Shown: piece after piece, positions 1,455 through 40,444 of the stretch
Layout: every line of letters begins with the position of its first letter
Numbering within the stretch: the stretch's first letter is position 1
IMG/VR virus record: IMGVR_UViG_2579778961_000003
Strand: one strand, 5' to 3'
DNA length: 40,444 bases
Origin: a virus
Lineage: Duplodnaviria; Heunggongvirae; Uroviricota; Caudoviricetes
Made by a program: the position numbers and the translations under genes
The notes under the pieces: generated by a model
Told to the model about the DNA's origin: nothing
Database searches by the model: none
Seen by the model: the letters and a program-made list of their open reading frames with translations, nothing else

Positions 1455-1540
1455 TGAAGAATGATGCGCCGCGCGATAAATGCACTCTATCTTGTGCGAT
1501 AAATGGCATCCACGCGGCGTTTCATTATTTGAAAAAGAAT
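1455..1540. other. Mu-type prophage end (attR-like) with repeated putative transposase-binding sites
   Basis: Begins 5'-TGAAG; CGATAAATGC/CGATAAATGG repeated at 1474-1483 and 1497-1506 and GTTTCATT...GAAAAAG at 1518-1537, resembling the Mu right end as I recall it (TGAAGCGGCGCACGAAAAACGCGAAAGCGTTTCACGATAAATGC). Confidence 0.55.
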
Positions 1541-2112
1541 TACATTTCAGGTTGCGTTATGACAGTCCCAACAGGGTGATAGCGGTAGATCGTTGACAGT
1601 CCAATATCATAGATAATTGCCAGCCGCTTTCTGTCATACCCTTTCTGGAGCAATCTTGCGATCTGCTCATGCTGCTCCTTCGTCAGTTTCGGGCGACGTC
1701 CTCCAACTCTTCCTTGTGCTCGCGCAGCAGCCAGTCCAGCCAGCGTGCGCTCAACTATCAGTTCACGCTCCATTTCTGCCAGTGCACCCATCATATGAAA
1801 AAAGAACCTTCCCATCGGAGTGCTGGTATCGATTGAATCCGTCAGACTGCGAAAATTGACACCTTTTGCGCGTAGCTCTTCTGTGAGAGCAATGAGGTGT
1901 TTCATTCTTCTACCCAACCGATCCAGCTTCCAGACCACCAATGTATCCCCTCTTTTAAGGCACTTTAAAGCGCGTTTCAGGCCTGGTCGTTCCGACTTGG
2001 TTCCGCTCATTTTGTCCTCAAAAATCTGTTCACATCCTGCGCACATTAATGCATTGCGTTGCAAATCTGTGTTTTGGTCATTTGTTGACACACGTATGTA
2101 GCCAATCAGCAT
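1540..2112 (-). CDS. gin: Serine recombinase, DNA invertase (Gin/Pin/Cin/Hin family)
   Basis: N-terminus MLIGYIRVSTNDQ (catalytic Ser motif) and C-terminal HTH; start placed at the internal ATG 2112 with AAGGGAG RBS rather than the ORF-track start at 2241. Confidence 0.85.
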   Translation of the reverse strand: MLIGYIRVSTNDQNTDLQRNALMCAGCEQIFEDKMSGTKSERPGLKRALKCLKRGDTLVVWKLDRLGRRMKHLIALTEELRAKGVNFRSLTDSIDTSTPMGRFFFHMMGALAEMERELIVERTLAGLAAARAQGRVGGRRPKLTKEQHEQIARLLQKGYDRKRLAIIYDIGLSTIYRYHPVGTVITQPEM

Positions 2113-2166
2113 TAAAAATACTCCCTTTTGAGTGGTTAAAGTACTGAGATAATGTGGGGAGGATTT

Positions 2167-2192
2167 GAGAGATAAACGTTGGTTTGGGGGAA
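2167..2192. other. Invertase crossover site (gix/hix-like), left
   Basis: 26-bp site GAGAGATAAACG TT GGTTTGGGGGAA with AAAC-NN-GTTT centre typical of hix/gix sites; outer half is identical to the right site in inverted orientation. Confidence 0.55.
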
Positions 2193-2645
2193 GGCTCTGC
2201 ATTGCCTGTTGGTGTACCGGTTCCATGGCCCACCGCCACACCGCCAGCAGGCTGGTTACAGTGCAACGGAGCTACGTTCACCAAAGAACAATATCCTGTT
2301 CTGGTCAGAGTCTACCCGACCCTCCGTCTTCCCGATTTGCGCGGTGAGTTTATCCGTGGATGGGACGGTGGTCGCAAGGTTGATACCGGGCGTGCGCTAC
2401 TTTCATTTCAGGAAGGGACTATCGTATCCGGTTTTGATGATAATGATACCGGAGATATCAGTTCGCTCGGCTCTACACAATACGGATTTGGTGACGCTTT
2501 AACCTCTAATCAACTGGGGGTCTTAAATGGCAAAAAGTGGATATTTGATGCATCCTCTAAAGGTGCACAAAGATATGACTGGTGGGCTTATGTATCAGCT
2601 CGCCCCCGCAATATCGCATTTAACTATATCGTGAGGGCGGCGTGA
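2184..2645 (+). CDS. Alternative tail-fibre C-terminal cassette (Sv'-like), promoterless until inversion
   Basis: First 70 aa nearly identical to residues 278-346 of the fibre at 3266..4603 (GEGSALPVGVPVPWPTATPPAGWL...), then a divergent C-terminus ending NYIVRAA. Confidence 0.7.
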   Translation: MGEGSALPVGVPVPWPTATPPAGWLQCNGATFTKEQYPVLVRVYPTLRLPDLRGEFIRGWDGGRKVDTGRALLSFQEGTIVSGFDDNDTGDISSLGSTQYGFGDALTSNQLGVLNGKKWIFDASSKGAQRYDWWAYVSARPRNIAFNYIVRAA

Positions 2646-2651
2646 TACCGT

Positions 2652-3266
2652 TCAGCCGGCAAGCGCCAGTGGCGCTTCCGGCCAGCTGATTTCAGGTGCC
2701 TTGCTGATATCCAGTGCGTTCAGCTCGTCGATATAATCCAGCACGGCGTTCAGTTTTGCCGTTTCTTCTGGTTTCAGACTGCGACCAGCACGCAGTTTGA
2801 GGTTGATAAGATCGACGGACGCCATCGCCTGTTTCACCCGTTGCTGGCGTTGCTGTCTGGCAACCTCCAGTTCTGCGGCTCGCTGCCGTTCAGTATCGGT
2901 TACCCACGCCTCACCGTTCCAGGTATCCCATGGCGTGGCTGGCTGTTTTGTGGTGGTGTCCGCCGGGTAATCACCCGGTTGGGTAATCAGAACGGGGTTA
3001 CCGTTCTCCGTGCTGTATACCGTCTCGCCGCGGTGATCAGGCACATGCTCCCACCCGTTCAGCGTGGCAGTCCGGCAAACCACGTAACCCGAAATTGCTT
3101 CCGGCGGTGCATCGGCGCACGAATGTGCCGGAGTACCCACCCCAAGGGCGAGATACTCCACAGAGGATGAGGTGTATTCCCGGGTTTCCTCGTCATAGTG
3201 ATATACAGTGATATCGCCCGCTACAGTGGCGATACCGTTTTCATCCAGAACTGCAGTGTTACTCAT
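2652..3266 (-). CDS. Tail fibre assembly protein (chaperone, Mu U / P2 G-like)
   Basis: 204 aa ORF immediately downstream of the fibre gene, inside the invertible segment; position and size typical of tail fibre assembly proteins. Confidence 0.75.
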   Translation of the reverse strand: MSNTAVLDENGIATVAGDITVYHYDEETREYTSSSVEYLALGVGTPAHSCADAPPEAISGYVVCRTATLNGWEHVPDHRGETVYSTENGNPVLITQPGDYPADTTTKQPATPWDTWNGEAWVTDTERQRAAELEVARQQRQQRVKQAMASVDLINLKLRAGRSLKPEETAKLNAVLDYIDELNALDISKAPEISWPEAPLALAG

Positions 3267-4603
3267 TAAACTGCCCTCACAATGTAATTAAGTGCAATGC
3301 TACGGGGTCTGACAGTGATACCCTTCGCATACCCGCTTCTGATAGAGGTCAGAATAGTAGCCTGCATACCATTGTCTGACATTGCCACGACAGGATCGCT
3401 GAATGTTGTCCCGTCCGGCATTTTAAAGCTGCCCTCACGAAGGTCTGTAATGGAATCTTCATTGTTGAATCCCATGCCGACTATCCCCGAGGTTCCCGTA
3501 GTGTCCTGGTTATAATAATCCAGCATTGCTGTTCTTAACAGCGTTGCCCCTTGTGCGGACAGCAACTTACGTCCTGTATCAACTTTGCGCCCGTCGTCCC
3601 ATCCACGGATAAACTCACCGCGTAAATCGGGAAGACGGAGGGTCGGGTAGACTCTGGCCAGAACAGGATATTGTTCTTTTGTAAAGGCGCGCCCGTCGCA
3701 CTTTAACCAGCCTGCTGGCGGTGTGGCAGTGGGCCACGGAACAGGTACACCAACGGGCAGCGCCGAGCCTTCCCCCAAACCAAGGTAATTGAGGACATCT
3801 TTTATACTGCCCTTAGCGATAATAGCGCGACCAATAGCTGTAAGGGTTGCCAGCTCTGCGCGGTCTGCTCCGGTAAAATAAGGCAACCGATCTGCTGCAG
3901 TGGCAAGTCCTGCCAGAGCAGTGAGCGTGGCATCTGCCGGTTGTTTTCCGTTTGCCAGATCGTATGCAGCCTTGACCGCTTTCGGTGTGGCGGCCAGTAT
4001 TTCAGACGTGCTGTTGATGGCACTGCTCAATTGTACGGTGCCTTTTGCCGTCAGCGAGGCAGCAGGCACTCCCGTTATCTGACTCCACGGGTGAGTGTGG
4101 CTGACGGGCGCCTTGCCGGCTGCAAGGTCGTATGCAGCCTTGACCGCCTTCGGCGTGGCAGCCTCAGTTTCTGATTGACTGTCCGTGGCGCTGCTCAGTT
4201 GTACGGTGCCTTTTGCCGTCAGTGAAGCCGCAGGCACTCCCGTTATCTGACTCCACGGGTGAGTGTGGCTGGCAGGCGCCTTGCCGGCTGCCAGGTCGTA
4301 TGCAGCCTTGACCGCTTTTGGTGTGGCGGCCAGCGTTTCAGAGGTGCTGTTGGTGGCACTGCTCAGTTGGGTGAACCCCTTAGCTGTCAGTGTCGCGTCC
4401 GGGTGGTTACGGGAACGTACGTGTTCAGCCAGTGACTGTGCGGCTTCCTCCGTTTTCTTCTTCAGCCATTTCGTCCTGTTTGCCAGTTGCCGGGGGGCTC
4501 GATTTGATATCCCGTCTGCACCACCCAGAACCGGATCTGATGTCTCCAGTTGATAGATATTTTCTTCCCACTTTTCTGTTTCATTCAGGTTTCCCATAAT
4601 CAA
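3266..4603 (-). CDS. Tail fibre protein (Mu S / P2 H-like) with variable C-terminus
   Basis: 445 aa; internal 56-aa repeats with the ...SETLAATPKAVKAAYDL... motif known from Mu/P1/P2 fibres; C-terminus ends NYIVRAV. Confidence 0.85.
   Translation of the reverse strand: MIMGNLNETEKWEENIYQLETSDPVLGGADGISNRAPRQLANRTKWLKKKTEEAAQSLAEHVRSRNHPDATLTAKGFTQLSSATNSTSETLAATPKAVKAAYDLAAGKAPASHTHPWSQITGVPAASLTAKGTVQLSSATDSQSETEAATPKAVKAAYDLAAGKAPVSHTHPWSQITGVPAASLTAKGTVQLSSAINSTSEILAATPKAVKAAYDLANGKQPADATLTALAGLATAADRLPYFTGADRAELATLTAIGRAIIAKGSIKDVLNYLGLGEGSALPVGVPVPWPTATPPAGWLKCDGRAFTKEQYPVLARVYPTLRLPDLRGEFIRGWDDGRKVDTGRKLLSAQGATLLRTAMLDYYNQDTTGTSGIVGMGFNNEDSITDLREGSFKMPDGTTFSDPVVAMSDNGMQATILTSIRSGYAKGITVRPRSIALNYIVRAV
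3770..3795. other. Invertase crossover site (gix/hix-like), right
   Basis: TTCCCCCAAACC AA GGTAATTGAGGA, about 19/26 matches to hix as recalled; inverted relative to the site at 2167-2192. Confidence 0.55.
3944..4393 (-). repeat. In-frame 168-bp tandem repeats (about 2.7 copies) inside the tail fibre gene
   Basis: Protein repeat SLTAKGTVQLSSA...TPKAVKAAYDLAAGKAP.SHTHPWSQITGVPAA at residues 71-126 and 127-182, partial third copy 183-220. Confidence 0.8.
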
Positions 4604-9498: not shown

Positions 9499-12449
9499 CA
9501 GCGGTACTCCTTACGTTGTTTCTGAGCCAGCAGACGCTCCAGCATTTTTTCCAGCTCATGCAGACTCATATTCAGGGCACCAGTCAGTCCTGCAGGCGCT
9601 GTGGTTTCCCTGCCATTGAGGAAAAACTGAGGATTAAAGCTGACCTGGATACCACCAGACGTTCCACCGCCGGTTGCAGCTGCACCACGGCCTGAATATC
9701 CGGCAGCCAGGATTTCAGGCGAGGGGATACGGGGAACATCCGGTGTCATCTCATTTGCCAGACGTTGCCCTGGTAAAATCGATGCCCGGGTGGAGAGCGG
9801 AATAGCGGGCATGGAAGACAAACTATTGATTACGGCTCCGATCGCATTTTTAGCAGACGACATAAACCCATTGATATCGGGCAACGGCATACTGAAGCGA
9901 ACACCTGAAGTGTTATCCCGTATTTCTGGCCCCTGAATGCTCACGGGCATTCTGGGGAGCAGTTCACTGGCCATTCGCTGCCCGGCCAGAGCTGCAAGCG
10001 GAGTGGTCCGCTGCAGGCCAATGGCGGCCCCCTGCGCGATATTGTCACCAAAGCCCATAAACACGCGGCTCGGCGAATGAATGCCCAGCTTTTCGCTGAA
10101 CCAGCCACTGATGCTGTCGCCCATTCCGGTTACACTGGATTTGAGCGACTCCCATTTGTTTTTGATACCGTTAATCAGACCATCGACAAGATGGCCACCG
10201 AAGTCGGTAAACTTTGCCGGCAGATCAACACCAAGATATTTCAGCGCAGCTGCAAAGGCTTTATAGAGCAGACCTGCCGGCGACCAGTTAATCAGCAGCT
10301 TACCAGTTCCCGCGATACCGCCGTTAAAGGCTTCCTGAATGTCAGCCCAGCATTGTTTAAACCAGCTACTGATGCTGTCACCCATTCCGGTTACACTGGA
10401 TTTGAGCGACCCCCATTTGTTTTTGATACCGTTAATCAAACCGTCGATAAGATGGCCACCGAAGTCGGTGAACTTTGCCGGCAGAGTAACGCCGAAATAT
10501 TTCAGCGCAGCCGCAAAGGCTTTATAGAGCAGGCCTGCCGGCGACCAGTTAATCAGCAGCTTACCAGTTCCCGCGATACCGCCGTTAAAGGCTTCCTGAA
10601 TGTCAGCCCAGCGCTGTTTAAACCAGCCACTGACTGCCCCCCAGTTGCGGTAGATAAGGTAAGCTGCTGCCGCGACAGCGGTGATAACGAGACCGATGGG
10701 ATTCATCATCAGCGCTCGCCCAATCCAGAGAACGGCACGTGCAGCGCTCATAAAACCGCGAACGAGGCTGCCCGCCAGAACTTTGCTGAGTTTCAGTCCT
10801 CCGCTGGTCAGTCGGCTGAATCCAGTGACAAGCCAGCGTAATTTGCCACCTTCTCCGAGTGCGGTAGTCAGTCGATGCCAGTTGGTCCGGAGTAAAACAG
10901 CAGTTTTCCAGACGTTCACAAAGGGGGAAATAAGGAGATTCAGCCCCAGTTTGAGACCAACAGTCGCTATCTTAATCGCAAGGAGCGCACTGATGAGCTT
11001 AAAAGCCCCACTGACAAATTGCGGGTGAGTCGCCACCCAGTGTTTTGTCCCCTGAATGAGTGGGAGCAAGTCCTGAGTCAGAGAAATAAAAGATGGAGCT
11101 AATTGATCGCCCAGCGTAATTGCCAGATCGCGACTGCTGACCATAAGTGTTTTAGTGGCTTCAAGGGGAGATTTCAGCCGCTGATCATAAGCACTGGCAA
11201 GCAAATCGTTATCCGCAGCCCTGAGAGCACCGGCACGGATCTCTCGATATCTGTCCATGTTGGCCAGCATCGGGCGGATAAATGCCATGACCTGCATATC
11301 CGCGAACATATCGCCCAGACCAAAGTTTTTCGCCAGAGCCTGAAGTGCCTCATCTCTTGCCGTATCATTCTTTATTTTCATGGCTGATTTGAAGCCGGCC
11401 AGCGCTTCGGGGCTTTTGGCATTGAGGTAACGTTCTATAACACTCAACATCCCTTCAATCGGAGAGATCCCCGCAGCTTTATAACTCGCAATAGATCCCT
11501 GCAAATCAATACCCAGATCAGCAAACTGTTTCTGAGTATCGCGGGCAAAAATTTTGGTAAGAAAGTTTTTAAAATTATTGGCTGCTTCGTCGGTGGAACC
11601 TGCACCGATTTTTGCTATCTGGAGACTGGCCCCGATTTCAGCAACAGCCTCTTTTCCACTGGCAATACCCGCCATCATTGGGGCCAGGGACTGCATCCAC
11701 TTGACCTGATCCGGGATTTCAAATGACCCCTGGTCACCGGCATAAGCCATAATATTCTGAACGGCACCAAAATCTCTGGCCGCGCCTTTCAGGGAGTTTT
11801 GCCAGACTGCGGCCACTTTTGCCCAGTCCTGAGCAGACGTGCGTGTTGCCGTTGCCGCGCGGGCAATATCCGGCATCAGAAAACCGATATCTGACACATT
11901 ATCAATATTGTCGCTGATGAGTGAACCCATCGCCTCCTGCAGCTCATCCTGATACTGATTGTATTTAAGCGCCCAGCCTTTTATCTGTCCGGCAAGTGCA
12001 TCCCGCGTTTTATTGTCATATTTTGCGGTGATCGACATATCAATCATTTTGTCCTGAAAAGACATGGACTGCTGAACGGCAGGGGAAACCGTATGATAAA
12101 CAGTCTGTGCCATGCCATACGCTTCAATCCCCTGACCATACAGCGCCATGCGGTTAGCTTTCAGCGCATCACTGGTAGCGGATGCCGCTGACAGACGGCG
12201 CTGCTGGCGCTCAATTTGCTCCATGGTGCGGCTTACCCGCAGCAGCTCGCTGTTGAGATGCTGCATCCGGGAAGAACCCAGTTGACCATAACGTTCTGTT
12301 GCACGGGTTAAAGCGTTCTGACGTTCCTGCAGGCGGCGTGAGGTATCGCTCAGGGAATCAAGCGCACGGCGGGTACCGCTCATTGCAGAACGGAATGTGC
12401 TGCCAATCATCCCGCCGATAACAACGCCGACTGAAAACTGTCCCGACAT
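9498..12449 (-). CDS. Tail tape measure protein
   Basis: 983 aa, coiled-coil N-terminal region, hydrophobic central region, located after the frameshifted tail chaperone. Confidence 0.9.
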   Translation of the reverse strand: MSGQFSVGVVIGGMIGSTFRSAMSGTRRALDSLSDTSRRLQERQNALTRATERYGQLGSSRMQHLNSELLRVSRTMEQIERQQRRLSAASATSDALKANRMALYGQGIEAYGMAQTVYHTVSPAVQQSMSFQDKMIDMSITAKYDNKTRDALAGQIKGWALKYNQYQDELQEAMGSLISDNIDNVSDIGFLMPDIARAATATRTSAQDWAKVAAVWQNSLKGAARDFGAVQNIMAYAGDQGSFEIPDQVKWMQSLAPMMAGIASGKEAVAEIGASLQIAKIGAGSTDEAANNFKNFLTKIFARDTQKQFADLGIDLQGSIASYKAAGISPIEGMLSVIERYLNAKSPEALAGFKSAMKIKNDTARDEALQALAKNFGLGDMFADMQVMAFIRPMLANMDRYREIRAGALRAADNDLLASAYDQRLKSPLEATKTLMVSSRDLAITLGDQLAPSFISLTQDLLPLIQGTKHWVATHPQFVSGAFKLISALLAIKIATVGLKLGLNLLISPFVNVWKTAVLLRTNWHRLTTALGEGGKLRWLVTGFSRLTSGGLKLSKVLAGSLVRGFMSAARAVLWIGRALMMNPIGLVITAVAAAAYLIYRNWGAVSGWFKQRWADIQEAFNGGIAGTGKLLINWSPAGLLYKAFAAALKYFGVTLPAKFTDFGGHLIDGLINGIKNKWGSLKSSVTGMGDSISSWFKQCWADIQEAFNGGIAGTGKLLINWSPAGLLYKAFAAALKYLGVDLPAKFTDFGGHLVDGLINGIKNKWESLKSSVTGMGDSISGWFSEKLGIHSPSRVFMGFGDNIAQGAAIGLQRTTPLAALAGQRMASELLPRMPVSIQGPEIRDNTSGVRFSMPLPDINGFMSSAKNAIGAVINSLSSMPAIPLSTRASILPGQRLANEMTPDVPRIPSPEILAAGYSGRGAAATGGGTSGGIQVSFNPQFFLNGRETTAPAGLTGALNMSLHELEKMLERLLAQKQRKEYR
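10075..10640 (-). repeat. 261-bp in-frame tandem duplication (2 copies plus the start of a third) inside the tape measure gene
   Basis: ccagc(c/t)actgatgctgtc recurs at 10101, 10362 and 10623 (period 261 bp); the protein shows two 87-aa units WFKQ(R/C)WADIQEAFNGGIAGTGKLLINWSPAGLLYKAF... Confidence 0.9.
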
Positions 12450-16772: not shown

Positions 16773-17726
16773 TTATTTACTGATACCGGTAATGAGATAC
16801 CCGGCATCGCCACCAACCACGGCGACTTTGTAGATATCGGTATAACGGCAGTACTTCACCTTGCCACCGGCTCCGTCGTATTTGTCGGCAACAGGCATCC
16901 CCTTACGACGCAGGGTGTAGCCGAAGGACGGCTCGTTCTCGTCCGCGCTGTCCGCCCCCGGCTGCGGTTTGCCGACATAGTGCAGCATCAGATTGTCTCC
17001 CCAGATATCCGCCGGCACGCTGTTCTTATCCATTGCCGCTTTCATGGACGGCAGGGAGACTGGGGCACCGATGACGATCTCTTCGATCTGAAAGAGGTCC
17101 TGCAGGATTTCTGTGGTGATGCGCTTGCGTTCGTTGGCTCCGATGGCGGCCTGAATCGCCGGGTGGAACTTCAGCAGCGCCATCACGCCGGCCCCCATGG
17201 TCATCAGGTTAGGACGCAGCCCCGTGGCCGTACGGACCGCTTCCATACCGGCTTCAATCACCCCGATGGGGTCCCCCTTACCACCGGCCCAGCGATCACT
17301 GGCTGTCAGTTTTTTGACGTGCCCGGTACGGTAGACCTTTTCATCCTGAGCCAGACGGGCAGCGATAAGTTCACGGCGCAGGTTCACGCCATTCGTGGCG
17401 CGACGGATGGCCTTGCTCTCTTCGTTAAACATGGACTCCGCCTGCTCGCGATAGTCCACCGGCGCAGCCAGATCGTGTTCACCCAGCACCAGGTCCAGCG
17501 TGCCTGTTTTTTCACGGACCAGAACATTGCTGTCCGCCCCGACGGCACGCTCGGTGTCATATTCCACAAAGGCGGTTTTCCCGAAGGTCGGTACACGCAC
17601 GCCTTCCTTGTCCGTCAGCACGACGGGGAAAATACGTTCGCCGATGAATGCGGCATTTTTATAGCCACGGGCGATACTGGTCAGTACCGGATCAACGACA
17701 CGTTTACCTTTTAAGTAATCAGACAT
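16773..17726 (-). CDS. Major head subunit (Mu gpT-like)
   Basis: 317 aa ORF following the protease/scaffold gene, typical Mu head gene order. Confidence 0.85.
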   Translation of the reverse strand: MSDYLKGKRVVDPVLTSIARGYKNAAFIGERIFPVVLTDKEGVRVPTFGKTAFVEYDTERAVGADSNVLVREKTGTLDLVLGEHDLAAPVDYREQAESMFNEESKAIRRATNGVNLRRELIAARLAQDEKVYRTGHVKKLTASDRWAGGKGDPIGVIEAGMEAVRTATGLRPNLMTMGAGVMALLKFHPAIQAAIGANERKRITTEILQDLFQIEEIVIGAPVSLPSMKAAMDKNSVPADIWGDNLMLHYVGKPQPGADSADENEPSFGYTLRRKGMPVADKYDGAGGKVKYCRYTDIYKVAVVGGDAGYLITGISK

Positions 17727-17740
17727 GCTCTCTCCTTAAA

Positions 17741-18614
17741 TTACAGGCAGCGTGCGACAGCAGCCTCATAGCTGATGCCTTCTTTTTTGGACAGGGCCAC
17801 TGCTTTCTGATGCAGGGCCAGACGCTCAGGATCGGCTTCCGCAAACTCTGCCACATCCACCTTCACCGTGTCGCCGACACGCTCTTTTGTGGCCTGTTCG
17901 GCGAAATTCATCACCGGCTCCCCGTCGGAGAGCAATGAACGAAAGGCGGTGGCCAGCGGTGTGCGGCTTTCCCCCTCAGCAAACTCCACCGGCTTGTCGC
18001 CACCGGCGACGGCATCCAGCAGGGCAACCACCACGGAGGAGGCGCGGGGAGCCAGACGGCCCTCTGCGACCAGTTTTTCTGCAAAGGCCACATTGTCCTT
18101 ATGCAGTTGCTCCTGTCTGACCTGTGCATCACGCGCATCGCGATCAGCAGCCTGCTGCTTCAGGCGGCGGTTCTCCTCCTGAAGGGCTTCAATCTCTTCT
18201 TTTGTCATCGATGATTCCTCGTTACTTGCGGAAGACGGCCCCGGGCCTGTCTCACTGAATTGTGCACCTGCTGCATCCTGCGACAGTGTGTCGCGGTACG
18301 CCTCTTCGCGCAGACTGTTGAGCTGCCATTCCGGCAGGACTTTTTCTGCCTCGTCCAGACTGAAGCGGGCGATCAGAAAATCGCGCAGCTTTCCCCACAG
18401 GGAGGCATTCGTGATGGCCTGCCAGTCGGCGAACTCCACCACACCTTCTTCCTGCTCACTGAAGGACACCTGTTTCAGCCCCTTGACGGAAGGTGGCTGT
18501 GCCCCGAGAAAGCCCACATGGCGAAGGTAGAGCACGCCGGGCTTCGGATTGGACGGTGAATCCGGGAGGTAGAAAGAGGCGGACACTTTTTTGAATCGTC
18601 CGTCGGTGACCATC
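17741..18614 (-). pseudogene. Head protease/scaffold gene I, C-terminal fragment (split by IS66 element)
   Basis: Frame continues across the IS: flank reads ...EMV | TDGRFKKVSASFYLPDSP... once the IS and one TSD copy are removed; Ala/Glu-rich scaffold-like C-terminus. Confidence 0.8.
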
Positions 18615-18644
18615 GTAAGCGTCAACGGAGCACCGTATTGACGC

Positions 18645-20258
18645 TTATTTATTGGTGAGTACTACGTTCCATGGCAGGAGTTCGTCAACTCGGTTGGAAG
18701 GCCATTCCGGCAGTACGCTCAGGATATGGCGCAGATACGCTTCCGGATCGATACCGTTCAGACGGCAGGTGCCGATCAGCCCGTACAACAGTGCTCCACG
18801 CTCGCCGCCGTGATCGCTGCCAAAGAACATAAAGTTTTTCTTTCCGAGACAGACTGCACGAAGCGCTCTTTCCGCAGCATTATTATCCGCCTCCGCCAGA
18901 CCGTCATCACTGTAATAACAGAGGGCATCCCACTGATTCAGTACATAGCTGAACGCTTCGCCCAGTCTGGATTTTTTCGACAGCGTACCATTCTTCTCCA
19001 CCATCCATTCATGCAGCGACGTCAGTAACACTTTGCTTCGCTGCTGCCTGACGGCAAGACGCTCTGACTCCGGTAATCCCCGTATTTCATCCTCGATGGC
19101 GTACAGTTCACTGATTCGCTTCAGGGCTTCTTCTGCCGTCGCACTTTTGCTGCTGATGTATACATCGTGGATTTTTCGCCGGGCATGGGCCCAGCACGCA
19201 ACTTCTGTCAGTGCACCACCTTCACGTTCTGCACTGAACAACCTGTCGTAACCTGTGAACGCATCCGCCTGCAGGATACCCCGGAAGGGGCGGAGGTGTT
19301 GCTCCGGGTGTTTCCCCTGCCGGTTCGGCGAGTACGCGAACCAGACCGCTGGAGGAGATGACGAACCCACATTGCGATCATCCCGGACATACGTCCAGAT
19401 ACGCCCTGTTTTCGCCTTTTTCTGACCCGGTGCCAGTACCTTTACCGGTGTGTCATCAGTGTGAACCTTGCGGGTGTTCATTACATAACGGTACAGGGCA
19501 TCATTCACCGGTGTCATTAACTGGCAGCACGCGTCAACCCAGTTGGAGAGTAAGGCCCGGCTCAGTTCGACACCCTGGCGGGCAAAGATTTCACTCTGAC
19601 GATACAGTGGCAGATGTTCGCAGTATTTTCCCGTTAACACGCGGGCAAGTAATCCGGGGCCCGCGATACCACGCTCTATCGGGCGGGACGGCGCCGGTGC
19701 TTCAACAATACAGTCACATTTTGTACAGGCTTTTTTTACCCGTTCTGTGCGGATCACTTTCAGGGCACTGCTCACCAGTTCCAGCTGTTCAGCGCTGACT
19801 TCCCCCAGATAATCCAGCTCACCGCCACACTCCGGGCAACAGCTTTCTTCTGGCTCCAGGCGGTGTATTTCACGGGGAAGGTGTGCCGGTAACGGACGAC
19901 GATGGCGCGACTGTCGCAACTGGCGGGGAACCTGAGGATCGTCTTCCCGCCCACTGTAACGATCGCTGTCCTGTTCACGTTGTTTCAGCAGAGCCTCAGC
20001 CAGTTCAACTTCACGACGCAGTTTTTCAGAACGGGTACCGAACAGCATCCGGCGCAGTTTTTCTATCTGAGCCCGCAGATGTTCTATTTCCCGTTCATCT
20101 TCTTCGATCTTTTCTTCGGCACGTGTCAGTGCAGAGCGCAGGAAGGCTTCCGTCTCTTCAACCAGACTCAGTTGCTGGTCTTTCTGACGGAGGGCTTCAG
20201 CCTGCTCAGAGAGCAACCTTTCCAGCTCTGCGATGCGAATGAGGTATTTCTGACTCAT
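18645..20258 (-). CDS. IS66-family transposase (TnpC)
   Basis: 537 aa with N-terminal coiled-coil/leucine zipper (LRAQIEKLRRMLFGTRSEK), zinc-finger cysteines and DDE region, as recognised for IS66 transposases. Confidence 0.9.
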   Translation of the reverse strand: MSQKYLIRIAELERLLSEQAEALRQKDQQLSLVEETEAFLRSALTRAEEKIEEDEREIEHLRAQIEKLRRMLFGTRSEKLRREVELAEALLKQREQDSDRYSGREDDPQVPRQLRQSRHRRPLPAHLPREIHRLEPEESCCPECGGELDYLGEVSAEQLELVSSALKVIRTERVKKACTKCDCIVEAPAPSRPIERGIAGPGLLARVLTGKYCEHLPLYRQSEIFARQGVELSRALLSNWVDACCQLMTPVNDALYRYVMNTRKVHTDDTPVKVLAPGQKKAKTGRIWTYVRDDRNVGSSSPPAVWFAYSPNRQGKHPEQHLRPFRGILQADAFTGYDRLFSAEREGGALTEVACWAHARRKIHDVYISSKSATAEEALKRISELYAIEDEIRGLPESERLAVRQQRSKVLLTSLHEWMVEKNGTLSKKSRLGEAFSYVLNQWDALCYYSDDGLAEADNNAAERALRAVCLGKKNFMFFGSDHGGERGALLYGLIGTCRLNGIDPEAYLRHILSVLPEWPSNRVDELLPWNVVLTNK

Positions 20259-20288
20259 GACCGTTTTTATAATGCGGTCAGGAGTTTT

Positions 20289-20639
20289 TTACAACATTGT
20301 CAGTGAGTTACGGCTGGATGTTTTTGGCTGACGCCAGTCCAGCTTATCGAGGAGCATTGCCAGTTGCGAGCGGGTAATGGATACCTTGCCGTCACGTACC
20401 GCAGGCCAGATAAACTGGCCTTCCTCCAGGCGTTTGGTGAACAGGCACAGACCATCAGCATCAGCCCAAAGAATTTTGACGGTGTCACCCCGTCGGCCAC
20501 GGAAGATAAACAGGTGACCGGAGAAGGGATTATCATTCAGCACATGTTGTACCTGTTCTCCCAGTCCGTTGAAGGATTTACGCATATCGGTAACGCCGGC
20601 AACGAGCCAGATACGGGTACCTGATGGGAGTGAGATCAT
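20289..20639 (-). CDS. IS66 Orf2 (TnpB) accessory protein
   Basis: 116 aa ORF in IS66 position 2; overlaps TnpA stop. Confidence 0.85.
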   Translation of the reverse strand: MISLPSGTRIWLVAGVTDMRKSFNGLGEQVQHVLNDNPFSGHLFIFRGRRGDTVKILWADADGLCLFTKRLEEGQFIWPAVRDGKVSITRSQLAMLLDKLDWRQPKTSSRNSLTML

Positions 20640-21061
20640 CTTCCCCTCCCGGTCAGTTCACGGATCAACACTGTGAGCAGCTCTGGCGATGGATTTTCCA
20701 GCGTCATGTTACCGTGACGGAATTCCACCTTGCAGGAACTGGCACTGACTCTGGTCTGAGTGGAAGTGGATAAAGACGGCGCAATGGCCGCCACAGGTTC
20801 TTTCTGCTCATCCGGCGTTATTTCTACAGGTAATAATTCAACGCCAGTGTCAGAAGAGGTCGTTACCGGAAGACGCCGCGAAACACGCCCTTCGTTCTGC
20901 CAGAGCCTGAGCCATTTGAAAATAACATTATCATTGACGCCATTTTCACGTGCAATCTGTGCAACACAAGCTCCAGGTTGTGATGCCAGTTCCACCATAC
21001 GAAGTTTGAATTCATTCGAATAGTTTTTACGAGGTTCTTTTCGCCAGTCCTGTAATTCCAT
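20636..21061 (-). CDS. IS66 Orf1 (TnpA) accessory protein
   Basis: 141 aa ORF with HTH-like N-terminus, first gene of the IS66 operon. Confidence 0.8.
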   Translation of the reverse strand: MELQDWRKEPRKNYSNEFKLRMVELASQPGACVAQIARENGVNDNVIFKWLRLWQNEGRVSRRLPVTTSSDTGVELLPVEITPDEQKEPVAAIAPSLSTSTQTRVSASSCKVEFRHGNMTLENPSPELLTVLIRELTGRGR

Positions 21062-21146
21062 ACTTAGATGTCCGTCTATATCAGATGGGCGTCTAAGTTA
21101 CCAATTCTCGTCTGATGGCTACATACGGCGGTCAGTTTACGCTTAC

Positions 21147-21396
21147 TGACCATCTCAGCAAACTGCGGGTCCAGCTGGGCAGGCTCTGCCATCAGATCGA
21201 CGCCGCTGAGCGACAGGGCTTTCACCCAGCCCCACGCCGGGTCTTCCGTTCTGGGATGACCAATCACGAGTGGTGCTTCATGGACGGACGGGTCATAGGC
21301 TTTCACGCAGGCGGCAAGATCGTCTGGCGTGAACGGCAGTTTTTTGCCGTGCATATCGGTATGAGTACCGGCTTTAAAAATGTGAATGGCTGACAT
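21147..21396 (-). pseudogene. Head protease/scaffold gene I, N-terminal fragment (split by IS66 element)
   Basis: N-terminal 83 codons (MSAIHIFKAGTHTDMHGKKL...) then read-through into the IS terminal repeat. Confidence 0.8.
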
Positions 21397-21610
21397 TTTG
21401 CTGTCCCGCGTTATGTTGTCGGAGACAGTTTGTGAGAAATGCAGGCCCGGCGATTTTAATCTGCTTTAGAAAACATCAGGGGAGAAGGACAGGGAAAGCA
21501 ATGCGGTGAACCGGAGGCGGTTATAAAACAGAGGCTGTAAAGCCTTTATAAAGGTAATACAGCCCCTCATTCGCTGGCAATGATAAATCACCCGCCTGAA
21601 GAGAGAAAAC

Positions 21611-30405: not shown

Positions 30406-30511
30406 TCATCGCCCCACAGGAATGCGCTGTGAGCCGACCAAGGTTCAGTCAGTCTCGCGAGACCTGACCAGACTGCCATATTTTTTAATAATTGTAAAAG
30501 GCTTGCAGATT

Positions 30512-31276
30512 ATGAAAATGCAGACATTACCCATCGTGCCGTGGATTGGTGGCAAACGCCGCCTTGCAAAACACATTCTGCCGCTGTTTCCGGCGCATGA
30601 ATGTTATGTGGAGCCGTTTTGTGGGGCAGCAGCGCTCTATTTTCTTAAGACACCCGGCAAGATCGAAGTCATCAATGATATCAACGGTGAACTGGTGAAT
30701 CTGTACCGGGTGGTAAAGCATCACCTGGAAGAATTTGTCCGCCAGTTCAAATGGGCGCTGGTCAGCCGTCAGATCTACAAATGGCTGCAGATCACCCCGG
30801 AAGAAACACTGACGGATATCCAGCGTGCGGCACGGTTCTACTACCTTCAGAAGCAGGCGTTTGGCGGCAAGGTGGCAGAGCACAGCTTCGGTACCTCCAC
30901 CACATCCCCGCCACGCTTCAACCTGCTACGTATTGAAGAAGAACTGTCAGCGGCACACCTGCGGCTTTCCAGAACAGTCATAGAACACATGGACTGGCAA
31001 CAGTGCATTGAGCGTTATGATCGTCCGCACACGCTGTTCTACTGCGACCCACCGTACCTGGGTACGGAAGGCTATGGTGTGGATTTTCCTGAAGGGAACT
31101 ACTCGCGGCTGGCAGAGCTGGCCCGGTGCATCAGAGGAAAAATGATAATTTCGGTGAACGACATCCCGCAGATGCGCGAGGTGTTCACTGGACTGAACAT
31201 ACAGACAGTGAATATCAACTACAGTCTGGCGGGTAAACCCACGCCGCGCCGTGAACTGCTAATCTGCAACTTCTGA
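30512..31276 (+). CDS. DNA N6-adenine methyltransferase (Dam-like, orphan)
   Basis: Motif I EPFCGAAALYF and motif IV DPPY (LFYCDPPYLGT); no adjacent endonuclease candidate; start chosen at ATG 30512 rather than ORF-track 30422. Confidence 0.9.
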   Translation: MKMQTLPIVPWIGGKRRLAKHILPLFPAHECYVEPFCGAAALYFLKTPGKIEVINDINGELVNLYRVVKHHLEEFVRQFKWALVSRQIYKWLQITPEETLTDIQRAARFYYLQKQAFGGKVAEHSFGTSTTSPPRFNLLRIEEELSAAHLRLSRTVIEHMDWQQCIERYDRPHTLFYCDPPYLGTEGYGVDFPEGNYSRLAELARCIRGKMIISVNDIPQMREVFTGLNIQTVNINYSLAGKPTPRRELLICNF

Positions 31277-33655: not shown

Positions 33656-35425
33656 ATGACCCCGGCACTGACTGAAAAACTGGTTGAAACAGCCCGCGCG
33701 GCACGTGACGCGGGGCATGGTAAACGCGGTGCAATATACGACGCTGCCTGTGCTGAACTTGGCATGTCCCGCGCCACTCTGCTGCGCAGGCTGAAGGAGG
33801 TATCTGTGACTGATAAACGCAAAAAACGCGCCGATGCCGGGCGCAGCGCCCTGACCCGCGACGAAGCCGCGCTGATATCTGCCACACTGCGTGAGGCCAC
33901 CCGCAAGAACGGTAAGCGTCTCTATTCCATCGCAGATGCAGTGGAAACCCTGCGGGCTAACGGCTTTATCACCGCAGGCAGAACAGATGAAACCACCAGT
34001 GAGTTTTTCCCGTTGTCTGAAGATGCCATCAGCCGTGCTCTGCGTAACTATGGCCTGCACCCGGAACAACTGGATGCCCCTGCACCACATACCGAAGTGG
34101 CCAGTCTGCATCCCAATCATGTCTGGCAGATTGACGCCTCACTCTGCACGCTTTACTACCTGAGCAATGGACATAAAGGGCTGCAGGTGATGGACAGCGC
34201 GAAGTTCTACAAGAACAAGCCCGCTAACCTTGCCCGTATCGCCAGTGACCGCGTGTGGAGTTACGAGATTACCGACCATGCCAGCGGCTGGATTTACGTT
34301 GAGTATGTGACGGGCGCGGAATCAGGTGAGAACCTGTGTTCTGTGCTTATCAACGCCATGCAGGAGCGTGGCGGCGCAGACGTGCTGCACGGCGTGCCGA
34401 AAATACTCTATCTCGACCCCGGCTCGGCAAACACCGCGGGTATGACGAAAAACATGTGCCGCTCACTGGGCATCGACCTGATAGCGCACAAGCCGCATAA
34501 CGCCCGCGCCACCGGACAGGTGGAAAAGGCGCGTGACATTATCGAACGCAAGCTGGAGCCGGGTCTGAAGTTCCGGCCGGTTCACAGTCTGGAAGAACTC
34601 AACGCGCTGGCCGCGAAATGGCGCAGCCACTTTAACGCCACGGCTGTTCACAGCCGCCACGGTAAAACCCGCACGGATATCTGGCTGAAGATTACTGCTG
34701 AGCAGCTGAAAAAAGCGCCTTCCGTTGAGGTATGTCGTGAACTGGCTGTGGCGGCACCAGAACTCCGCAAAGTCACGCCAAAACTTCGTGTCTCGTTCCG
34801 GGGCACTGAATTTGACGTATCAACGGTACCGGGCGTACTGGTTGGTGAAAAACTGATGATTACCCGTAACCCATGGCGCAGCGATGTGGCACAGGTGGTT
34901 CTGACCGGTGAGGACGGCCACGAGACGTTCTTCCTGGTCGAAGAGGTCAGAAAGAACGAGTTTGGCTTTGCTGAAGGCGCGGCGGTATTTGGCGAAAGTT
35001 ACAAAGCCCTGCCGGAAACCCCGGCACAGATGGCGGCAAAAGAAACCGAAGCGCTGGTTACCGGTACAGACAACGCCGCAGATGCAGCCGCCGCACGCAA
35101 GGCGAAGGCGCTGCCGTTCGGCGGGCGGCTTGACCCGTATAAACATATCGACGACACCACACTTCCGGCCTATATGCCGAAGCGTGGTCAGGCCTCTGAC
35201 GTACGCGGGCCGCGCACTGAACAACGTCCCATGACTCATGTGGAGGCCGCGAAAGCCCTGCGCGATAAGTTCAGCGCCGACGGCCTTACCTGGACGCCGG
35301 AACATTACCGCCAGTTAACGGCACAGTACCCGGACGGCGTACCGGAAGCCGCACTGGATGAAGTCATGGCCACGCTGACCACACCGGCCCGCAGCAGTGT
35401 TATCAGCATTGTTAACGGCAACTGA
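33656..35425 (+). CDS. DDE transposase (Mu A-like)
   Basis: 589 aa; N-terminal DNA-binding region; integrase-core-like HPNHVWQIDAS segment; followed by an AAA+ B-like gene. Confidence 0.8.
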   Translation: MTPALTEKLVETARAARDAGHGKRGAIYDAACAELGMSRATLLRRLKEVSVTDKRKKRADAGRSALTRDEAALISATLREATRKNGKRLYSIADAVETLRANGFITAGRTDETTSEFFPLSEDAISRALRNYGLHPEQLDAPAPHTEVASLHPNHVWQIDASLCTLYYLSNGHKGLQVMDSAKFYKNKPANLARIASDRVWSYEITDHASGWIYVEYVTGAESGENLCSVLINAMQERGGADVLHGVPKILYLDPGSANTAGMTKNMCRSLGIDLIAHKPHNARATGQVEKARDIIERKLEPGLKFRPVHSLEELNALAAKWRSHFNATAVHSRHGKTRTDIWLKITAEQLKKAPSVEVCRELAVAAPELRKVTPKLRVSFRGTEFDVSTVPGVLVGEKLMITRNPWRSDVAQVVLTGEDGHETFFLVEEVRKNEFGFAEGAAVFGESYKALPETPAQMAAKETEALVTGTDNAADAAAARKAKALPFGGRLDPYKHIDDTTLPAYMPKRGQASDVRGPRTEQRPMTHVEAAKALRDKFSADGLTWTPEHYRQLTAQYPDGVPEAALDEVMATLTTPARSSVISIVNGN

Positions 35426-39633: not shown

Positions 39634-40083
39634 ATGCAGAAAAAACGCCTGATACAGCTTATCCATATTGCCCGTAATGAACTGGGTATGGATGAAGACA
39701 CCTACCGCCAGATGTTACAGGGGCTGACCGGTAAAGCCTCAACCAAAGGAATGGATACCACACAACTAAACTGCGTGCTGGAATCCATGAAAAAGAAAGG
39801 CTTTCGCGTTAAACCAGCCAGAAAAGCCAGCTCCGGTTTACCGCTTGATAACCATCCGCAGTCCAGGAAAATTCGTGCGCTATGGCTTGAAATGGCTGCT
39901 GCCGGCATTGTTCGTGACCGTTCAGAAAATGCATTAGCGAGGTGGATCAAGCGGGAAACGGGCATCAGCGCCCTGCGCTGGCTCAGTACTGAACAGGCAA
40001 GCAGTGTTATTGAGAAACTGAAGAAGTGGCAGCGCAGAGCTGCGGGAGTCAAACATGAGCGACCTGAATCAGTTTCGAAGTAA
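39634..40083 (+). CDS. GemA-like regulatory protein (Mu gp16-like)
   Basis: 149 aa; N-terminal LIQLIHIARNELGMDEDTYRQML pattern; located immediately upstream of the Mor-like gene as in Mu. Confidence 0.55.
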   Translation: MQKKRLIQLIHIARNELGMDEDTYRQMLQGLTGKASTKGMDTTQLNCVLESMKKKGFRVKPARKASSGLPLDNHPQSRKIRALWLEMAAAGIVRDRSENALARWIKRETGISALRWLSTEQASSVIEKLKKWQRRAAGVKHERPESVSK

Positions 40084-40444
40084 GGGGCCGGAACTCCTGG
40101 TGGAACTGGCACAGCATACCTCTGAGACCGTTCGCGAGATTATTGATATTGAGCCCGAAGTTGCCGACCAGATTGGTCAGGCCGTCGCGAACCGAATGAT
40201 GCAGGTCTGGGGCGGGCAAAACGTTTATTTCCCGATGGGCATGGTATGGAAGGTCAGTCAGCGCGACCGGGAAATCTTCAGGGAGTTTAACGGACGCAAC
40301 CACCACGAACTGGCCCGCAAATTTGGTGTTTCGCTTCAGTGGGTCTACAGCGTGGTTAAGCGGGTAAGAAAAGAAGAACTGGATCGGATGCAGGGCAAGC
40401 TATTTGCTGATGAACCCGATGCAGATACGGAGAAAAAAGAGTAA
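40055..40444 (+). CDS. mor: Mor/C-family transcriptional activator (Mor-like)
   Basis: 129 aa with GGQNVYFPMG ... FNGRNHHELARKFGVSLQWVYSVV, matching the Mor/C family pattern as recalled; complete ORF ends at window end. Confidence 0.7.
   Translation: MSDLNQFRSKGPELLVELAQHTSETVREIIDIEPEVADQIGQAVANRMMQVWGGQNVYFPMGMVWKVSQRDREIFREFNGRNHHELARKFGVSLQWVYSVVKRVRKEELDRMQGKLFADEPDADTEKKE

Follow-up and report, generated by a model that had tools for sequence, protein, structure and literature searches.

The window analysed here, that is, the whole stretch of 40,444 nucleotides of the virus record IMGVR_UViG_2579778961_000003, holds a prophage of Escherichia coli BIDMC 78 in which a putative head maturation protease/scaffold gene is split by an insertion sequence (IS). 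The 5' fragment of the gene (21076..21396, minus strand) consists of codons 1-83 followed by 23 IS-encoded residues and a stop, giving a product of 106 aa that is annotated in that strain as KDG35990.1, and includes the codon of the invariant His47 at 21258-21256. The 3' fragment (17741..18613, minus strand; 290 aa) extends from a copy of the Met82 codon to Leu371 and holds the invariant Ser92 (18583-18581) and His113 (18520-18518). Within it lies a nested in-frame scaffold ORF (17741..18208, minus strand; Met217-Leu371, 155 aa), the ATG of which is preceded by GAGGA; it is intact despite the IS and is predicted to be helical in the AF2 model. The major head protein gene located directly downstream (16773..17726, minus strand; PHROG 1005, 9e-130; PF03864) is also intact. 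The 106-aa KDG35990.1 and the fragment of 290 aa, both called 'hypothetical protein' in BIDMC 78, are thereby explained as the halves of one head protease/scaffold gene.

The element separating the two fragments is a complete ISEc23-type IS of the IS66 family (18615..21146, minus strand; 2532 bp), which shares its direction of transcription with the phage gene that it interrupts. It is identical at 2532 of 2532 nucleotides (100%) to copies found in a single piece in many other E. coli genomes. The transposase of the 100%-identical copies is labelled in RefSeq/PGAP as 'IS66-like element ISEc23 family transposase', and the name ISEc23 is used here on the basis of this PGAP labelling of identical RefSeq copies, as a surrogate for the ISfinder entry. 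As in the IS66 family, tnpA, tnpB and tnpC are consecutive and co-oriented, with tnpC encoding the DDE transposase. The tnpA gene (20636..21061, minus strand) encodes a helix-turn-helix accessory protein of 141 aa (PF01527, HTH_Tnp_1, 5e-12; NF047595, IS66-like TnpA, 2e-23), tnpB (20289..20639, minus strand), the start of which overlaps the tnpA stop, a protein of 116 aa (PF05717, TnpB_IS66, 1e-36; NF033819, 2e-35), and tnpC (18645..20258, minus strand) the transposase of 537 aa (PF03050, DDE_Tnp_IS66, 9e-98; NF033517, 1.5e-135), which additionally matches the zf-IS66, LZ_Tnp_IS66 and IS66_C domains. The element is without cargo.

Terminal inverted repeats are present at the tnpC-proximal end (18615..18638; GTAAGCGTCAAC...) and at the tnpA-proximal end (21123..21146; ...GTTTACGCTTAC). 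The two arms, GTAAGCGTCAACGGAGCACCGTAT and the reverse complement of ATACGGCGGTCAGTTTACGCTTAC, are 24 nt long and 83% complementary, and are thus imperfect repeats; read inward from either end of the IS, the sequence begins with GTAAGCGT. For the IS66 family, Han et al. (2001) are said to have described terminal inverted repeats that are imperfect, measure about 20-30 bp and open with 5'-GTAAGCG; repeats of this kind, imperfect and with this 5' start, were observed at both ends of 18615-21146.

Both ends of the element are directly abutted by a copy of TGACCATC, at 18607..18614 on the tnpC-proximal side and at 21147..21154 on the tnpA-proximal side, forming a perfect 8-bp duplication that reads GATGGTCA on the gene strand and includes the native ATG of Met82; the chance identity of two specified 8-mers is 4^-8, or about 1.5e-5. 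A length of 8 bp is that of the target duplication of IS66 (PMC6778807). Four other identical copies of ISEc23 each have a perfect 8-bp duplication of their own, all of them different (GAAAGAGC, CAAAAACT, TTTTATGT and CTTGTTAA). Deletion of 18615-21154, comprising the IS and one copy of the repeat, yields an ORF of 371 aa (...QFAEMVTDGRFKKVSASFY...) that matches the unbroken gene of Escherichia phage PhiKM (Bcepmuvirus; XRL29391.1) at 100% identity, and the same intact protein (WP_001273074.1) is annotated in JJ1887, ABU 83972 and M9682-C1. The point of insertion lies between codons 83 and 84. The event was therefore a simple transposition that duplicated 8 bp of the target and cost no phage sequence, and by it the genome gained 2540 bp (the 2532-bp IS and the 8-bp duplication). 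An earlier sequence-only reading of this DNA had proposed the following features, all of which were borne out: the 2532-bp IS66-family element with three minus-strand ORFs by the Pfam and NCBIfam matches and the identical ISEc23 copies, the imperfect terminal inverted repeats by the 24-nt arms, the direct repeat at 18607-18614 and 21147-21154 by re-examination, the continuous frame on removal of the IS and one repeat by the 371-aa ORF, exactly as described, and the precision of the insertion by the comparison of the restored ORF with the intact PhiKM gene (100% over 371 aa).

The empty site was found in 637 of the 5426 complete E. coli genomes searched and the IS junction in none of the 5426, nor was the junction found in the GTDB species representatives. 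The exact 106-aa truncated product is present in 4 contigs and the intact protein in at least 1000. Both junctions were independently seen at contig ends in the assembly GCA_022408975.1, in which one contig breaks off 85 nt into the IS from its tnpA-proximal end and another starts 88 nt into it from its tnpC-proximal end. Eight contigs starting 0-2 nt from the Met82 codon, seven short ones and one of 3.9 kb (GCA_009589825.1), were considered as additional junctions and rejected, their first bases ('ag|ATG') being those of the uninterrupted allele; they represent random contig ends picked up by the exact-sequence look-up. These observations support an insertion restricted to one lineage, namely BIDMC 78 and a few close relatives. 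The description of the event as recent needs qualifying, as the insertion is common to at least two assemblies.

The sequence of the window derives from a draft scaffold (GCA_000692655.1, KK736438.1) and the junction occurs in no complete RefSeq E. coli genome, as would be expected if the IS were an artefact of assembly or scaffolding and the real gene were intact. A misplaced repeat would not, however, yield a perfect 8-bp duplication without loss of flanking sequence, and the same junction sequences recur in the independent assembly GCA_022408975.1; an artefact is accordingly given next to no credence.

The restored protein matches the profile of PHROG 976, 'head maturation protease', over the full length of the profile (E=2.3e-163, residues 1-370), and BcepMu gp32 shows 49% identity to it over 98% of its length. 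Met217 aligns exactly with the start of BcepMu gp33, the 'Mu Z equivalent'. The gene order in the window is portal, Mu F-like, G-like, target gene and major head (T-like), so that the target gene occupies the position of Mu I/Z between the G-like and major head genes and contains a nested Z-like scaffold start. The target gene is a member of the family of BcepMu gp32/gp33, described as the 'Mu I / Mu Z equivalent'. It had earlier been labelled gene I, and the label stands in the sense of a positional and functional equivalent, in view of PHROG 976, the fold and the nested start, but not in the sense of a sequence homologue of Mu I: in BLASTP against Mu I the restored protein gives E=1.1 and in hhalign E=0.063, neither being significant, and it has no Pfam match at E<=0.1, PF10123 included, and no NCBIfam match. 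Mu I itself scores 2e-98 on PF10123. The BLASTP comparison with P2 gpO was not significant, and the sole matches from a profile search of PDB sequences, coiled-coil ones to Mediator subunit 7, were attributed to chance and rejected. Among 52 diverse homologues, four weakly match PF10123 and four match PF05929, and some homologues are named 'GPO family capsid scaffolding protein'; the protease/scaffold family seems to form a link between those of Mu I and P2 gpO. The family has 5381 cluster representatives at 50% identity and is without a Pfam or NCBIfam model of its own.

Structural comparison points in the same direction. The AF2 model of the restored protein has pLDDT values above 90 over residues 1-120, and in a Foldseek search of the PDB each of the first 24 matches was a herpesvirus assemblin protease and the 25th was T4 gp21; the best match has an E-value of about 4e-4 and a probability of 1.00, with modest TM-scores of 0.2-0.4. 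Matches among BFVD structures were prohead protease/scaffold proteins, including a 'Mu-like prophage I protein'. An assemblin-like prohead protease fold is thus supported for the modelled N-terminal domain. H47, S92 and H113 are invariant in the 52 homologues and follow the order of the assemblin triad, which is His...Ser...His. In an hhalign alignment with P2 gpO (E=0.0036), His48 of gpO falls on H47, but Ser107 of gpO falls on S94 and not on S92. Conservation and fold together suggest H47, S92 and H113 as a candidate His-Ser-His catalytic set.

Judged by its sequence, the prophage is BcepMu-like (Mu-like, Bcepmuvirus-type) and transposable. It encodes a transposase with an rve domain (33656-35425) and Mor (40055-40444), and Gam and homologues of Mu gp27, gp29, F, G and gp36 are annotated. 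It adjoins aroA, at the aroA-ycaL site that is occupied in the ST131 strain JJ1887; the host sites of the prophage in different strains are unrelated, being aroA-ycaL in JJ1887, the interior of rstB in ABU 83972 and that of gspL in M9682-C1. The closest phage is PhiKM, which is classified in Bcepmuvirus, and the window without the IS shows 100% identity to it over all shared DNA; identity to the prophage of JJ1887 is 99.97-100%. The comparison found every other phage gene covered to be unchanged, among them the whole tail module with the invertible segment of the tail fibre. The window contains the protease/scaffold gene only once; an intact copy elsewhere in the prophage is what the sequence-only reading had named as speaking against its interpretation. 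The fragmentary PGAP annotation of the tail fibre in JJ1887 had suggested a prophage that was defective before the IS arrived; this was rejected, as the window has a continuous ORF of 445 aa, which differs from that of other strains solely in the number of a repeat of about 56 aa. Similarly, 27 mismatches to JJ1887 within 1-2405 had suggested a different host lineage, which was rejected because the first 1700 nt, comprising aroA and the host-prophage junction, are free of mismatches; all 27 therefore lie beyond 1700, towards the invertible segment. A search of the literature for phage PhiKM and for the inducibility of the ST131 prophage returned nothing.

Taken together, the observations show that an ISEc23-type IS jumped into the putative head maturation protease/scaffold gene of a BcepMu-like prophage; this prophage copy has very probably lost thereby the ability to produce virions on its own. 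As the insertion lies between codons 83 and 84, H47 is separated from S92 and H113; with these residues taken as the catalytic set, their separation would leave the protease inactive and the proheads neither processed nor matured. Prohead proteases of the assemblin-like fold class are needed for viable particles, as known from amber mutants of Mu I and from catalytic mutants of HK97 gp4 and P2 gpO. The 2.5 kb of IS may, in addition, cause the scaffold and major head genes downstream to be expressed less, and any polarity that it exerts would reach the major head gene. A scan for promoters and terminators around the IS gave nothing better than shuffled sequence, so that polarity cannot be read from the sequence, and read-through past the IS is possible because its genes are co-directional with the interrupted gene. 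The prophage copy alone would be expected to give no infectious virions, and the loss of infectious particle production is probable and well founded. Presumably the prophage is still inducible, with transposition-replication, cell lysis and the formation of tails.

A real insertion in a phage that is nevertheless productive, either through protease supplied in trans by a second copy or related helper or through an assembly that tolerates loss of the protease by way of the nested scaffold, is unlikely but deserves some weight. The carrier genomes have a median of one copy of the prophage gene, with 2-3 copies in some E. coli, and thus up to three copies that might complement; the nested scaffold ORF is intact with its own Shine-Dalgarno sequence and ATG; and the orientation of the IS with the operon may allow continued transcription of the downstream genes. 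Against this stand the median of one copy, the lack of a second copy in the window and the established requirement for prohead proteases of this fold class. Even a complemented phage, being Mu-like and packaging by the headful, would carry the additional 2540 bp and package less host DNA at its right end.

The intact state of all other compared phage genes, at 100% identity to PhiKM and inclusive of the tail module and the invertible tail-fibre segment, and the persistence of the insertion in at least two assemblies could also be taken as signs that the insertion is selected or regulatory, acting as a reversible switch by precise excision of the IS or as a domestication that retains immunity, lysis and contractile tails without virions. 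Such a role is very improbable: about 4 contigs carry the insertion as against at least 1000 with the intact gene, independent recurrent insertions at the site are absent from the 637 genomes, the IS is without cargo, and IS66-family elements are not known to undergo precise excision efficiently. Further, as the transposition and lysis genes are intact, a head defect gives the host no shelter from induction, which leaves the selective gain unclear.

A related proposal, also improbable, is that the IS disables head maturation only and that the lineage makes head-less contractile tails on induction, as an early step towards a tailocin-like or domesticated element. Production of head-less tails is suggested by the early genes (immunity and transposition), lysis, contractile-tail module and tail-fibre switch, all 100% intact. 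The insertion point is about 250 nt inside the gene that comes first after the intergenic gap preceding the head genes, and the IS has the same direction as this gene, so that late transcription could read through tnpA-tnpB-tnpC and couple transposition of the IS to induction.

The preferred reading, an IS insertion that abolishes virion production by this copy, represents an ordinary step of prophage decay that involves no new principle. It flags one copy of a very common transposable prophage of E. coli (637/5426 complete genomes) as probably virion-less, and is relevant where the inducibility of prophages, or phage-mediated transfer out of the BIDMC 78 lineage, is to be predicted.

The components of this locus have close counterparts in known systems. 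The ST131 plasmid pEC958 carries one ISEc23 element (PMC4398462), and the ISEc23 annotated in RefSeq for E. coli genomes and for plasmids including pEC958 has the same sequence, tnpA-tnpB-tnpC order, GTAAGCG... repeats and 8-bp duplication; there is no difference within the element, and the insertion site alone is specific to the present case. In P2 gpO (PF05929), as in the restored protein, the protease domain is N-terminal and a helical scaffold domain comes after it, but there is no significant pairwise BLASTP match with gpO, and the fold-match scores that relate the protein to assemblin and T4 gp21 are modest. Mu I/Z (PF10123, Mu-like_Pro) shares the position in the head module, the architecture of a protease with a nested scaffold and, at 361 vs 371 aa, a similar length, and differs in lacking direct sequence similarity to the restored protein, which has no PF10123 match. 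In BcepMu (gp32/gp33) and KS10 (gp28/gp29), the head maturation protease is accompanied by a nested scaffold as here, the scaffold gene of KS10 being embedded in frame within the protease gene (PMC2628397), and in BcepMu the gene occupies the same place, flanked by the Mu G-like gene and the major head gene, with an exactly aligned nested in-frame start. Unlike in these two phages, the gene described here is split by an IS and its host is E. coli, not Burkholderia.

Deletion of 18615-21154, which removes the insertion sequence (IS) together with one copy of its target repeat, yields a 371-aa ORF on the minus strand identical over all 371 residues (tblastn, 100%) to the uninterrupted gene of the Escherichia phage PhiKM (PQ738613.1), classified as a Bcepmuvirus, and the frame-restoring, precise insertion proposed in the sequence-only reading is thus upheld. 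The window without the IS is 100% identical to PhiKM across all the shared DNA, except at a sequencing gap within the tape-measure gene of the PhiKM record. That gap coincides with a direct repeat of ~261 bp (10099-10651; copies 92% identical) internal to the window's tape-measure gene, which encodes 983 aa and differs in length among strains.

The element occupies 18615-21146 (2532 bp) and is flanked by TGACCATC at 18607-18614 and again at 21147-21154, as read from the sequence; two specified flanking 8-mers would be identical by chance with a probability of ~1.5e-5. Its termini are imperfect inverted repeats of 24 nt with 83% complementarity, reading GTAAGCGT inwards from either end, and enclose minus-strand ORFs for TnpA (20636-21061; 141 aa; HTH_Tnp_1 and the NCBIfam IS66-like TnpA), TnpB (20289-20639; 116 aa; TnpB_IS66, 1e-36) and a DDE transposase (18645-20258; 537 aa; DDE_Tnp_IS66, 9e-98; NF033517, 1.5e-135) that also carries zf-IS66, LZ_Tnp_IS66 and IS66_C domains. 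The repeats, ends and three ORFs had been described correctly throughout from the sequence, and the assignment to the IS66 family can now be refined. Many single-piece, full-length copies of the 2532 bp at 100% identity were identified in the 5426 complete E. coli genomes searched, on chromosomes as well as plasmids, and half of the genomes with any match to the element have it in at least three places. The transposase of the identical copies is labelled by PGAP as 'IS66-like element ISEc23 family transposase', and by these labels the element is specifically of the ISEc23 type. Four identical copies examined with their flanks share the ends of the window element, each with its own perfect 8-bp duplication (GAAAGAGC, CAAAAACT, TTTTATGT and CTTGTTAA), which confirms the element boundaries and the 8-bp duplication, the length known for IS66 (PMC6778807). 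No obvious target consensus was observed among the duplications of these four copies.

Mu-type head genes surround the interrupted gene: upstream lie those for a portal (PHROG 113), a Mu F-like protein (PHROG 220) and a G-like protein (PHROG 26), and the next gene downstream encodes the major head protein (PHROG 1005). Among the PHROG families, the restored protein is a match for 'head maturation protease' (PHROG 976; 2e-163), and it is 49% identical to BcepMu gp32, labelled by its depositors as 'Mu I equivalent' with a nested gp33, 'Mu Z equivalent'. The start of gp33 aligns exactly with Met217 of the restored protein, the ATG of which (18208-18206) is preceded by GAGGA, supporting the protease-with-nested-scaffold architecture described for this group in the KS10 paper (PMC2628397). 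By sequence, kinship to Mu I/Z is distant at best: BLASTP against Mu I detected no homology (E=1.1), and the restored protein matches no Pfam or NCBIfam model, PF10123 included (2e-98 for Mu I itself), despite the 5381 representatives (50% clustering) in its family. In an alignment of 52 diverse family members, H47, S92 and H113 are invariant; four of the 52 weakly match PF10123 (Mu I) and four match PF05929 (P2 gpO serine peptidase/scaffold), which suggests that the family bridges Mu I and P2 gpO. Alignment to P2 gpO with hhalign (E=0.0036) places gpO His48 on H47. The AlphaFold2 model (mean pLDDT 83.7) has an N-terminal beta-rich domain (residues 1-120; pLDDT >90) followed by long helices; herpesvirus assemblin proteases fill the first 24 places among its PDB matches (best, KSHV protease, E=4e-4), and T4 gp21 follows. 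Matches in the viral structure library include 'prohead scaffold and peptidase', 'capsid maturation protease', 'Mu-like prophage I protein' and HK97-type prohead proteases. It is concluded that the restored protein is a predicted prohead serine protease of the assemblin fold with a scaffold domain fused to it, equivalent to Mu I/Z in function and position; the earlier name 'gene I' is thus apt in this positional and functional sense but not as a statement of orthology to Mu I.

The target duplication covers gene nucleotides 243-250, so that the insertion separates codon 83 from codon 84. The upstream fragment (21076-21396, minus strand) encodes 83 native residues, H47 among them, followed by 23 IS-encoded residues and a stop, and S92 and H113 lie on the downstream fragment. 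The latter keeps an in-frame ATG, the duplicated Met82 (18613-18611), before which no Shine-Dalgarno sequence can be recognised; any product translated from it would in any case be without H47. Two minus-strand reading frames remain intact, namely the nested scaffold ORF (17741-18208) and the gene for the major head protein (16773-17726). Since the IS genes run in the direction of the phage operon, read-through into it is conceivable, but the ~440 nt that separate the scaffold start from the tnpC stop might not be translated; a promoter/terminator consensus scan was uninformative as to polarity. Near the middle of the prophage, a 214-bp non-coding gap between the G-like and protease genes (21397-21610) is positioned as the Mu G-I intergenic region, where the Mu record marks a gyrase cut site.

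The prophage is BcepMu-like. The window starts with aroA (1-1284), which along with the host-prophage junction shows no mismatches over 1700 nt to strain JJ1887 (ST131), which has this prophage (99.97-100% identity) between aroA and ycaL; the mismatches to JJ1887 within 1-2405 all fall past position 1700, towards the putative invertible segment. Near-identical prophages split rstB in ABU 83972 and gspL in the ETEC strain M9682-C1. Such varied sites fit the pattern expected of a transposition-integrating phage, and the family is able to inactivate host genes. The tail-fibre region (1540-4603) appears to be invertible in the manner of the Mu G segment: a serine recombinase gene (1540-2241; Resolvase and HTH_7) lies beside 229-nt inverted repeats (2176-2404 and 3558-3786; 86% complementary), which flank a tail-fibre assembly gene (2652-3266) together with a second, alternative C-terminal part of the tail fibre (2184-2645; Collar domain). 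The early region encodes a D12-class N6-adenine DNA methyltransferase (30422-31276; PF02086, 9e-29), and as M9682-C1 has different genes there, the stretch appears to hold variable cargo.

Distribution of the insertion was examined with a 500-nt empty-site query (250 nt per side) and a 400-nt junction query. The site is uninterrupted in 637 of the 5426 complete E. coli genomes; the IS/gene junction was found in none of them at >=80% coverage, nor in the GTDB representative genomes. The window matches E. coli BIDMC 78 (GCA_000692655.1, scaffold KK736438.1) at 12321/12321 nt, and the 106-aa truncated product is KDG35990.1 in that strain; exact look-up placed this product on 4 contigs, against at least 1000 for the intact protein. 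An assembly artefact is ruled out by a second assembly, GCA_022408975.1, in which one contig stops 85 nt into one IS end and another begins 88 nt into the opposite end, both with identical junctions. The insertion is therefore not confined to one isolate but common to a small lineage, and its proposed recency is to be qualified accordingly, at least two assemblies carrying it. Eight contigs starting exactly at the Met82 codon (seven short and one of 3.9 kb, GCA_009589825.1), picked out by exact-match look-up as possible carriers, turned out to carry the uninterrupted allele, with contig ends at this point by chance. Truncated or fused forms of the gene are also seen in other E. coli assemblies (252 aa on a 5.24-Mb contig and 70 aa in a 4.96-Mb genome, for example), and hint at independent disruptions.

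No second copy of the protease/scaffold gene and no other defect was found in the window. The tail fibre (3266-4603; 445 aa) is a continuous ORF differing from those of other strains only in the number of a ~56-aa repeat, with two copies here, four in M9682-C1 (530 aa) and five in ABU 83972 (611 aa); PGAP gives the identical, continuous JJ1887 ORF as two fragments, one a pseudogene. Loss of the prohead protease is established to block viable heads in Mu I, HK97 gp4 and P2 gpO, and by this analogy the present prophage copy would, very probably, fail to yield infectious particles on its own. An intact second copy could possibly supply the protease in trans in BIDMC 78, some genomes having 2-3 copies of the prophage gene. 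Inactivation of a prophage structural gene by a catalogued IS is a familiar route of prophage decay, and the ISEc23-type insertion described here is an event of this already known kind.
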